Numbered from the stretch's first letter, positions 5,911 to 44,956 are shown. The stretch is 64,000 nucleotides of DNA from Candidatus Magasanikbacteria bacterium CG11_big_fil_rev_8_21_14_0_20_39_34 (GCA_002787355.1 PCWN01000007.1:86517-150516); one strand, 5' to 3'. Translations and numbers: made by a program. The notes: generated from the sequence alone by a model not told the origin.

Positions 5911-6780
5911 ATGAAAAAAATAATTATTTGGGTCATCGTAGTCATTATTGTAGTTGCTATTGGTGAAGGTTTTTGGTGGTGGCAAAACAATAATAAATCT
6001 ATAACAGATACATCTCACACAACAGAGAATGCTGAAGAACTAGTATTGAAAAATGTTAATGAACAAGAAAACAAAATCTTTGATAATAAGAAACTTGTAC
6101 CTTCACAGCAAAATGACAATAAAATTATTTCCTATCAAACAGGAAAATACACTATTTTTTATGAATTGAATAATAATCCCTTTGCACAAAAAAAAGTAAC
6201 TGTTTACTTAGATGATGGCAATGAAAAAACTGAACTATTTCAAGAAACGGCTTGGTCAATTGGCGGTAGCAATCCAGAATTTCAAGAGATAAAATCCAAC
6301 AATATAGTCTTGCTTACTTTTACCAATGGAGACATGGGTTGGTTTCAAAAAAATTATCATTATGTAAATGTCACTAATAAAGAGGTTATATCTGTTGAAG
6401 ATATTGATGTTGATGCTGGGTTAATAAAAATTTCTAATCAAAAACAAGATTGGGAAATTTCCACATTCATAAAAAATGAGTGTAAATATTTTGAAGATGG
6501 AAAAGTTAAAATTAGAGACGGAGAAAATTCATATCTAACGGACTTGACTTTAAATGGTAAAAGAGTCAACGTTCTAACACAAGAAAGGGTATTAAAATGT
6601 ATAGATTCAGATGGTTTAGGCACGGGACTTAATCCTGATGTGGATTTGAAATATTCAGGAATAAGTAAAGATCTATCAAAAATTTTCTTTTCTTTGACAA
6701 GTACAGATGGTGTTGAATTTGCTTTTGATATAAATAATCAAACAATATTAGAAAGTGTGCCACAAGATTTGGTGGAATAA
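5911..6780 (+). CDS. hypothetical membrane-anchored/secreted protein
   Basis: N-terminal TM/signal anchor IIIWVIVVIIVVAIG then a Trp-rich soluble domain; no family recognised. Confidence 0.4.
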   Translation: MKKIIIWVIVVIIVVAIGEGFWWWQNNNKSITDTSHTTENAEELVLKNVNEQENKIFDNKKLVPSQQNDNKIISYQTGKYTIFYELNNNPFAQKKVTVYLDDGNEKTELFQETAWSIGGSNPEFQEIKSNNIVLLTFTNGDMGWFQKNYHYVNVTNKEVISVEDIDVDAGLIKISNQKQDWEISTFIKNECKYFEDGKVKIRDGENSYLTDLTLNGKRVNVLTQERVLKCIDSDGLGTGLNPDVDLKYSGISKDLSKIFFSLTSTDGVEFAFDINNQTILESVPQDLVE

Positions 6781-7007
6781 AAAATCAGCGTGGCTGTCGC
6801 CTAACACGGAGTGTTCGATTATACAAAATTGCATTTCACATAAATTACGGTGCGTGATTTTACACTGACCTTATTTTTGCTCTGATTGGTTGCGAAAACT
6901 ACGGATACAATGATACATTGTGTGACATTATGAAAAAAATTAAATCACAGTCATGAAAAAAACATACCTTTTTTTGCAAAACATTTATAATTAGTTAACA
7001 CAATTTT

Positions 7008-7454
7008 ATGGAACCACTTATTGTAGGAATTCTGGGCGCAGTAATAAGCGCTATCATTGGGACACTATGGTATGCTAGATCCACTCCCATGGGGAGATGG
7101 CATATGGAATACCTTGGTTTTGATAAGCTTCCAGAAGAAGAGAGACAAAAAATGATTGCAGAGGCAAAACCAAAAATGTGGAAAAGCTATCTAGCACAAT
7201 TTTTCCTTTCATTTTTAACATCGGTGTTTATTGGTTTTGTCACAAGCTACACCGTTCAAAATGGTGGTCCGGAAAATGCCGTCTATTTTTATGTTTTTTC
7301 CGTTTGGTTTGCGTTTACCGTGCCTATGGTTGGACAAAACATTCTTTGGGGAACTTCCGGGGGCAGCTTAGCGTGGAAAAGGTTCTTTTCAGATATTTTC
7401 ATGAACTTGATTACCTATTTCATTATTGCTTTTGTTGCAACTTTGTTTTTTTAA
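7008..7454 (+). CDS. DUF1761-like membrane protein
   Basis: 148 aa, 4 TM, N-terminal LGAVISAIIGTLWY; resembles DUF1761 small membrane proteins. Confidence 0.4.
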   Translation: MEPLIVGILGAVISAIIGTLWYARSTPMGRWHMEYLGFDKLPEEERQKMIAEAKPKMWKSYLAQFFLSFLTSVFIGFVTSYTVQNGGPENAVYFYVFSVWFAFTVPMVGQNILWGTSGGSLAWKRFFSDIFMNLITYFIIAFVATLFF

Positions 7455-7486
7455 TTTTCAATTTTTAAACGAATTTTTTGTTTAGG

Positions 7487-8017
7487 ATGAAAAAATTACA
7501 TACTATGGGAAAGAAAATTGTTATCGTAAATGATTCAATGCAAAAAAATTATACCTATGAGCTGGTAGAACCCATGGGAAAAAATTTTGATCTTTCCTTC
7601 AAGCCAGAACTTACACCCAAGCAGATGCTTGAGTTGGGAGTATTTGGGGGACATTACATGACTGATTGTAAAAAAGAGTTTCCCAAAGAGTGGTTTGAAA
7701 ATGCAAAAATAAATCCTGATAAACCAGACAACACACTCAATTACTTTCATAAACATGCATCTCAACCGCTCAAAGTTTGGAAGCAAAAAGGATGGATAAA
7801 TGAAAAACATGATCCACGTGGCTGGTTTCAGTGGTACTGTAGATATTATATGGGCAGAAGGCTTCCGGAAGAAGATACAAGACAGATTAAACGCTGGAAA
7901 GCATATCGCAGGCATTTAGCTCAGGTAGTAAAAAATTGTAAAGCGAAAGATTTTTCCTGTCGAGCAAAACAAAGGCAGTCACTCCTTCATTGGGCGTATG
8001 ACTCTCGAAAGATTTAA
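7487..8017 (+). CDS. hypothetical protein with conserved W/Y/R-rich motif (GWFQWYCRYYMGRR)
   Basis: ORF 7478(TTG)..8017; first ATG at 7487. Soluble and basic, with no confident family assignment. Confidence 0.4.
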   Translation: MKKLHTMGKKIVIVNDSMQKNYTYELVEPMGKNFDLSFKPELTPKQMLELGVFGGHYMTDCKKEFPKEWFENAKINPDKPDNTLNYFHKHASQPLKVWKQKGWINEKHDPRGWFQWYCRYYMGRRLPEEDTRQIKRWKAYRRHLAQVVKNCKAKDFSCRAKQRQSLLHWAYDSRKI

Positions 8018-14232: not shown

Positions 14233-14650
14233 ATGTATGAAAAAAACTCTTATCCATGCCGCAGGATGTTTTATGGAATATGATGGAGAATTCATTATTC
14301 TTTTAAGAAATTCAGAAAAACCTGATGGAAATACTTGGGGACTGCCTGCGGGAAAAATAGATTCTGGTGAGACTCCTCTTGGTTGTATTGTCCGTGAAAT
14401 CAAAGAAGAAACTGGATATACGACTGAACCAGAAGAGCTGAAATTTTTGGGGAAATATGAATATTCGTTCCCAGAGTTTAACCTTGTATTTTTTACATAC
14501 AAATTATGTCTCCAAGAACGAATTAAAATCGTATACAGTGAGAGAGAGCATAGAGATTGGATGTATGTATCTGCAGATAATTGTTATAGTATGAAAAATT
14601 TGGTTCGTGGACTTCATGATGTTATAAAGCGGACTGGTTATATAAAATAA
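14222..14650 (+). CDS. NUDIX hydrolase (paralog of 2787..3233)
   Basis: Nudix box GKIDSGETPLGCIVREIKEETGY; N-terminus MKNKC parallels MKNKEC of the first copy. Confidence 0.7.
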   Translation: MKNKCMKKTLIHAAGCFMEYDGEFIILLRNSEKPDGNTWGLPAGKIDSGETPLGCIVREIKEETGYTTEPEELKFLGKYEYSFPEFNLVFFTYKLCLQERIKIVYSEREHRDWMYVSADNCYSMKNLVRGLHDVIKRTGYIK

Positions 14651-14669
14651 AAAAACTCTCATCCGAGAG
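14646..14669 (-). terminator. rho-independent terminator of the GC-rich minus-strand cassette
   Basis: Minus-strand sense CTCTCGGATGAGAG followed by a U-run (plus strand AAAAAAACTCTCATCCGAGAG). Confidence 0.5.
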
Positions 14670-14719
14670 ATTGTGCGACGACCCGAAGAGGTGGGGGATC
14701 CGGGTCGCGGCGAAGGGGG

Positions 14720-14986
14720 CTAGCGGAGGCGTGGCTGCCGCCGAGGAGGAGAGAAGAGGAAGCGGTAGATGGAGTAGATGATCACCACCGTGATGATGAG
14801 GGCGCAGATCTTGGCAGCTTCCTCGGATGGCCACCAGGGGATGAGGTTGAGGCCGAGCCCTGCATCCAGGGTCACCGTCCCCAGGATGAGGTGGCAGAAG
14901 ATAGCAAACACCCGCACGGAGAGCGGGTACTCTTGGGCGGTTTGCTTCCACGTGTTCCCGGTGGTCGTTCTCGCGGTGCCGTGCAT
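14720..14986 (-). CDS. small two-TM membrane protein encoded in a compositionally foreign (GC3-rich) ORF
   Basis: 89 aa, MHGTARTTTGNTWKQ...RQPRLR. Strong GC3 codon periodicity, SD AAGGAGGAG 6 nt before the ATG at 14986, own promoter and terminator. Confidence 0.55.
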   Translation of the reverse strand: MHGTARTTTGNTWKQTAQEYPLSVRVFAIFCHLILGTVTLDAGLGLNLIPWWPSEEAAKICALIITVVIIYSIYRFLFSPPRRQPRLR

Positions 14987-15018
14987 GGGTCTCCTCCTTA
15001 TCATGCGTGGCCGCGCCT

Positions 15019-15047
15019 ATTTTTACAGATTTTTACAAAAAAGTCAA
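15019..15047 (-). promoter_or_regulatory. sigma70-like promoter (TTGACT-16/17-TAAAAAT) driving the GC-rich small ORF
   Basis: Minus-strand TTGACTTTTTTGTAAAAATCTGTAAAAATAGG about 35 nt upstream of the SD. Confidence 0.45.
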
Positions 15048-15120
15048 TTTTTCTTTTAAAACAAGTCTTTTCAAGTAGAAGAAAATTCTATACAATGGAG
15101 ATGGAATAGAAAAATATTTT

Positions 15121-43758: not shown

Positions 43759-43872
43759 TTGGTGCTTGCCATTTTTGTTTTTGGGTTCAGAGAAAAGCAA
43801 CAAAGGTTGTTTTTCCCTGGACCCAGTGGTGGTCCGTGTATCCGTGCCGTTGGCACACAGGAAAATGGGGGC

Positions 43873-44586
43873 ATGATGCGAATCAAGCCTTGGAGTGAGC
43901 GCTCGGCGCTCACTCGCCTCCTCGTGATCGAGGGGGAGGTGAATTCGGTTGAGGAACTCGCGACGCGACTGGCCGCGGAGGGACTGCTGGAGTGGGCCAG
44001 CAACAACTCCCTCCGGGCTGTCGTTTCCGAGATCGTCGGTGAGGGCGGCTACAAGGAAGCCGCCCGATGCCGGCAGATCCAGGGAGGCGTCAACCTCGGT
44101 GAGGAGAGCATCGAGATGTTCCGCGCGTGCGCGGAGCGTCTCATCCGGATCGGGGGGGATGAGAACCTCCCCACGATCACCCGAGCGCTCGCTCTGCACA
44201 ACGCCGCTTCCTGCCTCGCGGCGTGGAACGGCGTGGATCTCGATCGCCAGGAGTCACTCAACGAGCGGTCGGTCGAGTTGCTGGAGCAGGTCCCCGAGGC
44301 GAACCGAGGCGACGACTGGTGGGAGGCCTACAGGAAGCCTGTCGTCGGCCTCTTCGAGGCCGGCGTGAAGGCTTGGGATCCCTTCATGTACTTCCAGATT
44401 ATCCGGCGGATGATCGAGAACGGTTCCAAGGACTCAGCGGGTCGTCTCGAGTACTTCATCCGGCGAATGGCCTCCGATCTGGGGGCCATGGCTGGGGTGG
44501 TCCTCGACGAGGAGCTCGGAGCTCACAACCAGCGAGATCGTTTGCTGGCCCTCATGGGGCACCTGCAGGCACTCGTCGCCGCCTGA
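43873..44586 (+). CDS. hypothetical alpha-helical protein encoded in a compositionally foreign (GC-rich) ORF
   Basis: 238 aa (MMRIKPWSERSALTRL...LQALVAA). GC3-rich codons (ctc/atc/ggc/gag) unlike every other gene here. About 107-nt structured GC-rich leader; strong terminator downstream. Confidence 0.55.
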   Translation: MMRIKPWSERSALTRLLVIEGEVNSVEELATRLAAEGLLEWASNNSLRAVVSEIVGEGGYKEAARCRQIQGGVNLGEESIEMFRACAERLIRIGGDENLPTITRALALHNAASCLAAWNGVDLDRQESLNERSVELLEQVPEANRGDDWWEAYRKPVVGLFEAGVKAWDPFMYFQIIRRMIENGSKDSAGRLEYFIRRMASDLGAMAGVVLDEELGAHNQRDRLLALMGHLQALVAA

Positions 44587-44644
44587 TTCACCCCCCACCT
44601 ACGACCTTACCTTCGGCGGCCAGCACCCACATTGGCCGCAAAAA

Positions 44645-44696
44645 ACACCTGAGTTTGTATGTATGCCATATAGCTTCAGGTGTTTTTTTATTTTTG
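44645..44696 (+). terminator. rho-independent terminator after the GC-rich ORF
   Basis: ACACCTGA-(23 nt)-TCAGGTGT followed by TTTTTTTATTTTT. Confidence 0.6.
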
Positions 44697-44956
44697 GATA
44701 AATTCATTGTCATTGCGAGCTGAGTATACAGCGTGGCAATCCACCCACCTGAATATACGCCAATTATGGAATTTCCTCTTCCTAACAAGGAGATTGCCGC
44801 GTCGTCGTGGCGGACTCCTTGTAATGACAAAGTGAAGGATATTCAAAAGTATTATACAACTGGATTACCTGTATATATAGATAATTTTTTGTTTGCAAAA
44901 AAAAGGAAAAGAAGATAGAATAAGGGAAAAAGCTAAGATATATATTTTGTGGGTTT

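Follow-up and report, generated by a model that had tools for sequence, protein, structure and literature searches.

Morons, as known from the genomics of lambdoid phages, are autonomous promoter-ORF-terminator units that lie between other genes and deviate from them in base composition (ORF, open reading frame). A unit of comparable layout is present in a 64,000-nucleotide stretch of DNA (the window) of Candidatus Magasanikbacteria bacterium CG11_big_fil_rev_8_21_14_0_20_39_34 (GCA_002787355.1 PCWN01000007.1:86517-150516), an AT-rich groundwater member of the Patescibacteria (Candidate Phyla Radiation, CPR) represented by a metagenome-assembled genome (MAG) from Crystal Geyser. This unit is a GC-rich block on the minus strand (14670..15018), which carries an ORF for a small peptide of 88 residues.

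By analogy, the phage moron appears to be the closest counterpart of this block. As in a moron, one ORF flanked by a sigma70-like promoter and an intrinsic terminator lies between two unrelated genes, its composition is sharply unlike that of the neighbours, and its product appears to be a small orphan membrane protein. Unlike a moron, the block is located in a housekeeping region of a CPR chromosome and not in a phage or prophage, and its promoter and terminator apparently are recycled host DNA outside the mobile unit. Moreover, there is no related genome without the insert, so that the comparison by which a moron is defined is impossible here.

Horizontal gene transfer (HGT) is frequent and well documented in Patescibacteria (PMC12455944), and the category of this locus is therefore already known. 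The block very probably is a laterally acquired coding gene, and taken alone it would be one more such orphan gene for a small membrane protein. On balance, we consider it probable that the block is a recent, un-ameliorated single-gene insert from an unsampled, GC-rich donor that uses Shine-Dalgarno (SD) sequences, and that parts of a host terminator made this insert moron-like.

A foreign-style coding block in an AT-rich genome

The block has a GC content of 63%, compared with 36.8% for the whole window, in agreement with the ~340-bp block of about 62% GC that had been described in the original prediction. In 200-nt windows, the GC fraction is 0.635-0.645 within the block and 0.26-0.40 in the flanks, and the transitions at ~14670 and ~15018 are sharper than 20 nt. 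Among 300-nt bins across the 64 kb, only 14701-15000 (0.63) and 43801-44700 (0.57-0.65) exceed a GC fraction of 0.45.

The ORF (14720..14986, minus strand) is recognized by its codon-position GC content, hydropathy, helices in a structural model and orphan status in searches. Its coordinates are as originally predicted, but it encodes 88 residues followed by a stop codon and not 89 residues. The GC contents of its first, second and third codon positions (GC1/GC2/GC3) are 0.54/0.48/0.84, with a clear three-base periodicity in the frame led by the SD sequence. GC3 is 0.299±0.039 in 45 host ORFs, with a maximum of 0.419. Consistently, the synonymous codon choice of the ORF scores -2.29 bits per codon under host usage, whereas host genes span -1.63 to -1.22. 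Thus, the GC3-rich and un-ameliorated foreign codons that had been proposed are indeed present, and the compositional outlier is highly significant, far beyond chance. All of the sequence features named in the original prediction are found at the coordinates given there.

The 5' untranslated region (UTR) of the block (14987..15018, minus strand) is also GC-rich and contains the SD sequence AAGGAGGAG a few nucleotides 5' of the ATG codon, with its core AGGAGGAGA at 14990-14998. When paired with the canonical anti-SD ACCUCCUUU (the 3' end of the host's own 16S rRNA lies outside the window), this sequence gives a duplex energy of -11.1 kcal/mol, compared with a mean of -0.6±2.3 and a best value of -5.6 for host genes. 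Around the island, in the region equivalent to contig L001 (window 4720-24986), a 4-mer SD core is found in only one of the 29 genes called by JGI, and the leaders are A/T-rich. Because the host barely uses SD sites, the strong SD is itself foreign. The textbook SD of the original prediction is therefore present and strong, but it is not a signal of native style and may be useless in this host. About half of Parcubacteria have been reported to lack the anti-SD motif in their 16S rRNA (PMC9297842), and the near-absence of SD sequences from the host agrees with this loss. A second ATG codon (15002-15004) lies in frame six codons before the one at 14986 and would add three Arg residues to the peptide; it has no SD and is located ~8 nt from the predicted transcription start.

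The foreign DNA consists only of this 32-nt 5'UTR with its strong SD, the 88-codon ORF and a C-rich 3'UTR of 50 nt that contains a GC hairpin. Its composition, codon usage and translation signals are all atypical for the recipient and its boundaries are sharp, which is the compositional signature of HGT.

Because RNA genes commonly form GC-rich islands in AT-rich genomes, a structured non-coding RNA gene with an incidental ORF was tested first. The GC-rich stretch starts right after the -10 box and stops at the terminator, and GC-rich DNA gives long chance ORFs in several frames, both of which would suit such a gene. However, the block has no Rfam match at the gathering threshold and nothing meaningful even at E<=10, and neither strand is notably stable when its folding is compared with that of shuffled sequences (z = -0.95 and -1.32). 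In addition, the strong periodicity and the GC3 of 0.84 fall exactly in the SD-led frame. These results together exclude a structured RNA gene, which is effectively refuted and keeps next to no probability. The block codes for a protein, and its foreign style is that of a gene shaped by a GC-rich genome.

Across at least seven samples, more than ten contigs show the block and its two junctions with 100% identity. Identical contigs come from JGI 3300004210, 3300004106, 3300005237 and 3300025005, several ENA assemblies and the Logan assemblies of SRR5487652 and SRR6240790, and those carrying the block at 100% identity are L007-L009, L015, L016 and L018-L024. Only two single-nucleotide polymorphisms were seen, both outside the block (15471 and 16243). 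The population is clonal, and the variants of the peptide in protein clusters differ only in the called start. Neither an empty site nor a presence-absence polymorphism was found among 19 contigs, and the nearest other genomes are too distant for this comparison. The block is therefore fixed and invariant in the population.

An abrupt block of this kind could also be an assembly chimera or a contamination, or be left over from a mobile element that targets terminators, such as a degenerate group IIC intron. The short contigs L007-L009 terminate at 14665-14727 by the block edge. However, they enter the block and remain identical to the window until their ends, and L015, L016 and L018-L023 cross both junctions and L024 the right-hand one, in several samples and with several assemblers. 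Because more than ten independent contigs reproduce the block identically, it is not an assembly artefact, and the chimera that the original prediction had named as its refutation is not borne out. Since other contigs cross the same region identically, the ends of L007-L009 are probably due to low coverage or to a GC bias rather than to polymorphism.

The sequence GTGCG is the 5' consensus of group II introns, and a terminator hairpin is the classic target of IIC introns. On the plus strand of the block, GTGCG (14673-14677) comes 3 nt after the terminator hairpin. However, no group II domains are detected at E<=10 and the other strand carries the codon periodicity, so that a group IIC intron is rejected and GTGCG is most likely a coincidence. 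A search made for the block 14670-15018 found no flanking direct or inverted repeats and no target-site duplications, and attC cores were likewise not found. The probability left to a chimera, a contamination or a mobile remnant is negligible.

Putative transcription signals and a proposed insertion site

Host-type AT-rich DNA directly upstream of the block contains a promoter-like site, TTGACT-N17-(TG)AAAAAT (15019..15047, minus strand), with 9 of 12 matches and a TG extension. Downstream of the block, a host-type terminator, CTCTCGGATGAGAG (CUCUC-GGAU-GAGAG) followed by U7, occupies 14649..14669 on the minus strand, and its U-run overlaps the stop codon of the NUDIX gene. Within 1.1 kb, there are four promoter-like sites against 2.7±1.6 expected and three terminator-like sites against 0.9±0.9 expected, both of which are modestly above chance. 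A separate GC-rich hairpin (14675..14711, minus strand), found by folding in the C-rich 3'UTR, has no U-tail and is possibly the donor's own terminator.

Without 14670-15018, the plus-strand sequence would be TAA-A6-CTCTC-ATCC-GAGAG-ATTTTTACAGATTTTT. This reconstructed empty site has the A-run, hairpin and T-run shape of the host's other bidirectional terminators. ATT is present at both junctions; being only 3 nt long, it carries no weight.

The arrangement suggests that the gene unit may have entered the bidirectional terminator of the NUDIX gene and separated its hairpin from its T-run, in which case GAGAG would be joined straight to ATTTTTACAG in the empty allele. The old T-run, read on the minus strand, would now act as a -10 box (TAAAAT) beside the TTGACT -35 box, and the old hairpin with its A-run would act as the terminator of the peptide gene. 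The outcome would be an autonomous moron-like transcription unit. We see about an even chance that the insertion occurred into the NUDIX terminator. The promoter and the terminator lie where the original prediction had placed them, but they are probably recycled from the NUDIX terminator and are not the cassette's own parts. Because the NUDIX gene would now be without its T-run, NUDIX transcripts may read antisense through the insert.

The neighbours of the block are housekeeping mur genes, the NUDIX gene, a kinase-like gene and an unknown gene whose product has a hydrophobic segment at its N terminus. The NUDIX protein is identical to one of the NCBI MAG Candidatus Magasanikbacteria bacterium CG11_big_fil_rev; in the nearest other genomes, it is only 57% identical. 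The MurC-like neighbour is 69% identical to its counterpart in a 'Nomurabacteria' MAG and ~55% identical to those in Magasanikbacteria MAGs.

The peptide and the predicted fold-back of its mRNA

The peptide has hydrophobic segments at residues ~22-46 and ~57-79 by hydropathy, and its single-sequence AlphaFold2 (AF2) model contains helices at 22-43 and 54-78, with a predicted local distance difference test (pLDDT) score of 66. A mildly basic N-terminal segment precedes the helices, an acidic loop rich in Trp (NLIPWWPSEE) connects them, and five Arg residues lie in the tail RFLFSPPRRQPRLR. According to the positive-inside rule, the peptide is predicted to be a two-helix membrane hairpin in N-in/C-in topology. 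Consistently, the two hydrophobic helices and the basic tail noted earlier are supported by hydropathy, charge and the AF2 model.

No relative of the peptide beyond the same organism was found by a word-indexed search of 5.8 billion clustered proteins, which also covered the 237-aa protein of a second island described below, or by exhaustive HMMER over 1.84 billion representative proteins with the peptide only. The sole other HMMER match is a 25-residue patch in a repetitive protein of 1,722 aa. Pfam, PHROGs and PADLOC contain no family for the peptide, with nothing better than E=0.03 in Pfam and PHROGs. Searches by tblastn of phages and plasmids, IMG/VR and JGI metagenome contigs returned only the same organism, and Foldseek of the AF2 model against the PDB returned generic helical hairpins only and no relative. 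Hence, no donor lineage or homologue is present in any collection searched, as would be needed for phylogenetic evidence of HGT. The sources of the peptide are JGI, MetaClust and ENA only. Because no NCBI record lists it, the peptide is probably unannotated in the GenBank MAG.

In the mRNAs of aapA1-type type I toxins, the SD is hidden by a long-range interaction between the 5' and 3' parts (PMC5416894, PMC6733600). The ORF of the block contains a perfect 9-nt complement of the SD core, the anti-SD UCUCCUCCU (14744..14752, minus strand), in codons 79-81 (TCT CCT CCT). These are three consecutive T-ending codons in an ORF that has only seven. For the predicted 364-nt transcript, the partition function gives SD and anti-SD a pairing probability of ~0.7, and this value ranges from 0.54 to 0.97 with other transcript ends. 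The probability that the SD is unpaired is 0.116, compared with 0.347±0.143 in synonymous recodings, of which 2 of 300 are as low. In a predicted nascent transcript of 113 nt, by contrast, the SD is 0.82 unpaired. The full-length mRNA would therefore be expected to hide its SD through a 5'-3' fold-back onto the anti-SD near the 3' end of the ORF, and because of this occlusion, translation would be confined to nascent or processed transcripts. Functional control by this fold-back is possible, though we hold it to be somewhat improbable, and as a modelled feature it is one point that would favour a toxin-like regulatory design.

On the defining features tested, the block is not a member of the type I toxins, holins, integron cassettes or RNA families, although it resembles several of them. 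As in type I toxin loci such as hok/Sok and AapA1/IsoA1, the product is a small hydrophobic peptide that is orphan-like and apparently uncalled in the GenBank MAG, the SD is predicted to be hidden by long-range 5'-3' pairing as in aapA1 (PMC5416894, PMC6733600), and antisense transcription might arise from NUDIX read-through. However, the peptide has 88 aa and two transmembrane (TM) helices, whereas such toxins usually have fewer than 60 aa and one TM helix. In addition, no homology is detected, the host may not use SD-dependent initiation, and no plus-strand promoter-like site that could drive an antisense RNA is present at 14640-15060. The type I toxin architecture suggested originally thus finds a counterpart in the SD sequestration alone, in silico. 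With class II holins and pinholins, the peptide shares the size range, the predicted two TM helices, N-in/C-in topology and strongly basic C-terminal tail, and the two in-frame ATG codons (15004 and 14986) of which the upstream one yields a form with three more Arg residues. In contrast to these holins, the upstream ATG has no SD, the block has no endolysin, spanin or other lysis partner and no prophage context, and no holin family of Pfam or PHROGs matches. The holin-like reading of the peptide is therefore not sustained as membership. Integron cassettes are likewise gene-sized, trimmed units with an orphan ORF, a deviant GC content and a hairpin after the ORF, but the block has no attC cores and no array, and its hairpin has only 37 nt.

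We favour a membrane-active peptide under fold-back control. If translated, the peptide would most likely insert into the membrane as a hairpin and disturb or gate it, as a toxin, a holin or an exclusion protein does. We give such a membrane-active, toxin- or holin-like role a rather low probability. If this is true, a membrane-toxic peptide gated by fold-back would have to be counted as an analogue of type I toxins that is unusually large and has two TM helices. To our knowledge, no type I toxins have been described in this phylum.

Several results weigh against this picture and against a recent insertion in general. The fold-back was tested post hoc, and SD occlusion is partly generic for GC-rich mRNAs: the SD of the second island (I2) has a value of 0.057 against 0.172, and that of L002i, in a related genome, 0.145 against 0.344, with no effect in L003b. 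The promoter match is barely above chance. The absence of any donor or homologue is odd for a transfer that is un-ameliorated and therefore recent. The insertion point and its timing are inferred because no empty site is available, the nearest NUDIX protein being only 57% identical, and no polymorphism is usable for a selection test. Furthermore, the host seems to be without SD-led initiation and the leader is GC-rich and structured, so that the peptide is perhaps hardly translated.

The last of these points leads to the strongest rival, in which the block is a real foreign unit that was dead on arrival: a barely translated and functionless passenger, kept only by its recency and by clonality. 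The lack of SD usage in the host and the frequent absence of the anti-SD in Parcubacteria (PMC9297842), the occluded leader and the extreme codon mismatch would all be expected of such a passenger. The invariance of the population leaves purifying selection undemonstrated, and the different, unique islands of each relative suggest rapid turnover. Nevertheless, the ORF, its start codon, the SD and the anti-SD are all intact, and the sites resembling a promoter and a terminator have the right positions. The insert is fixed in at least seven samples although CPR genomes are streamlined and prone to deletion. We therefore regard a neutral passenger as a serious but rather unlikely explanation. A benign, non-toxic accessory membrane protein of lateral origin, for example a factor for immunity or superinfection exclusion or a small protein that regulates a membrane complex, appears more improbable still. 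The two-TM N-in/C-in hairpin with its short, acidic, Trp-rich outer loop and basic tail would suit such a protein, and morons and small accessory genes often encode proteins of this type (general knowledge; for small membrane proteins see the review PMC12648545). However, the peptide has no homology to any family, the island has no partner gene, and fold-backs that hide the SD are typical where the product is harmful (PMC5416894, PMC6733600). Compared with both of these, the membrane-active peptide under fold-back control is the reading that we prefer, and the locus raises the question of how far, if at all, an SD-dependent GC-rich mRNA is expressed by a ribosome that possibly does not recognize SD sequences.

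GC-rich units elsewhere in the window and in relatives

A sister GC-rich island is located at 43815..44639 on the plus strand, with a terminator downstream (44640-44689). Its ORF (43873-44586; GC1/2/3 of 0.69/0.43/0.82) encodes an all-helical orphan protein of 237 aa (PIR04017.1, 'hypothetical' in the NCBI MAG), which was found only in the same organism in the collections searched and whose structural model (pLDDT 52) is too poor for a structure search. The ORF is followed by a C-rich 3'UTR with a hairpin and then by a terminator of the form A6-hairpin-T7. The likeness of the two islands noted in the original prediction holds in the high GC3, the orphan protein, the promoter-like site and the terminator. 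A placement of the sister island between the stop codon and the terminator of a ferredoxin gene proved wrong, as the ferredoxin terminator is already upstream of the island.

Whether both islands have a common donor was also proposed, and the data are compatible with it. The codons of the peptide ORF score -1.36 bits per codon under the usage of the sister ORF and -2.29 under host usage, compared with -1.38 for host genes under host usage. CTC, ATC and GAG are preferred in both island ORFs. The dinucleotide distance delta* is 90 between the islands, 66-187 within them, and 196 and 245 from the islands to the host. However, a generic model of GC-rich third positions fits the peptide ORF equally well (-1.39 bits per codon), and comparisons among the GC islands, including those of related genomes, yield composition noise only and no homology. 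For these reasons, the data allow a common donor but do not show one.

The 3'UTRs of both islands, which are ~50% C, contain the 9-mer CCCCCACCT shortly downstream of the stop codon (14689-14697 and 44592-44600), and the 8-mer CCCCACCT occurs only at these two sites in the 64 kb. As a meaningful link between the islands, the 9-mer was set aside as marginal (p ~0.05 given 50% C).

Related genomes have GC-rich islands of their own, which are unrelated to one another in sequence: L002 at ~7585-7950, L003 at ~6200-7740 and L006 at 1-760, with coding-type periodicity where measurable. A further unit in L003 (about 1301-1900) closely repeats the anatomy of the 14670-15018 cassette: TTGACA-17-TACATT, a GC-rich stretch that begins just past the -10 box, AAGGAGG, a GC hairpin and a host-type terminator. 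Its ORFs encode 59 aa and a 63-aa zinc ribbon (CxxC...CxxC) in different frames, and periodicity over the whole block was not seen. All four of the cassettes examined, in three genomes, share a common anatomy in which a U-less GC hairpin at the end is followed by a terminator of A-run, hairpin and T-run, and none contains fragments of neighbouring donor genes. Pfam, PHROGs and PADLOC have no family for the ORFs of the two islands of the window (I1 and I2) or for those of L002i and L003i; the large protein collections were searched with I1 and I2 only. A regular-expression search found no pairs of attC cores (RYYYAAC...GTTRRRY) on either strand of the four cassettes.

The recurrence of trimmed, family-less GC-rich units in this CPR clade is a more intriguing lead than the single gene. 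Because their GC-rich, SD-using style is unlike that of the host and similar orphan units are present in related CPR genomes, such units could record what episymbiotic CPR bacteria take up, and perhaps from whom. As a long shot, CPR bacteria of the Magasanikbacteria type might repeatedly capture transcript-sized units from a GC-rich, SD-using and essentially unsampled pool. A captured unit would comprise a 5'UTR with its SD, one or more ORFs and a U-less terminator hairpin, and its source would possibly be the organism that hosts these bacteria or the mobile elements of that organism. Capture would place trimmed single genes beside intrinsic terminators, for which RNA-mediated retro-transfer and an undescribed cassette system are candidate routes.

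The GC-rich orphan ORFs of L002 (93 aa) and L003 (398 aa) occupy the same syntenic spot directly upstream of mraY, which suggests an insertion hotspot there in these two genomes. The corresponding spot in the present genome has no island.

An intergenic segment just 3' of the sister island (44695-44860) folds with a z-score of -4.4 (0 of 200 shuffles), and terminal inverted repeats of ~14 nt, TTGTCATTGCGAG and CTTGTAATGACAA, close its multi-branch structure. The segment has no Rfam match and occurs only once in the window, and it could represent a small RNA or an element resembling a miniature inverted-repeat transposable element (MITE).

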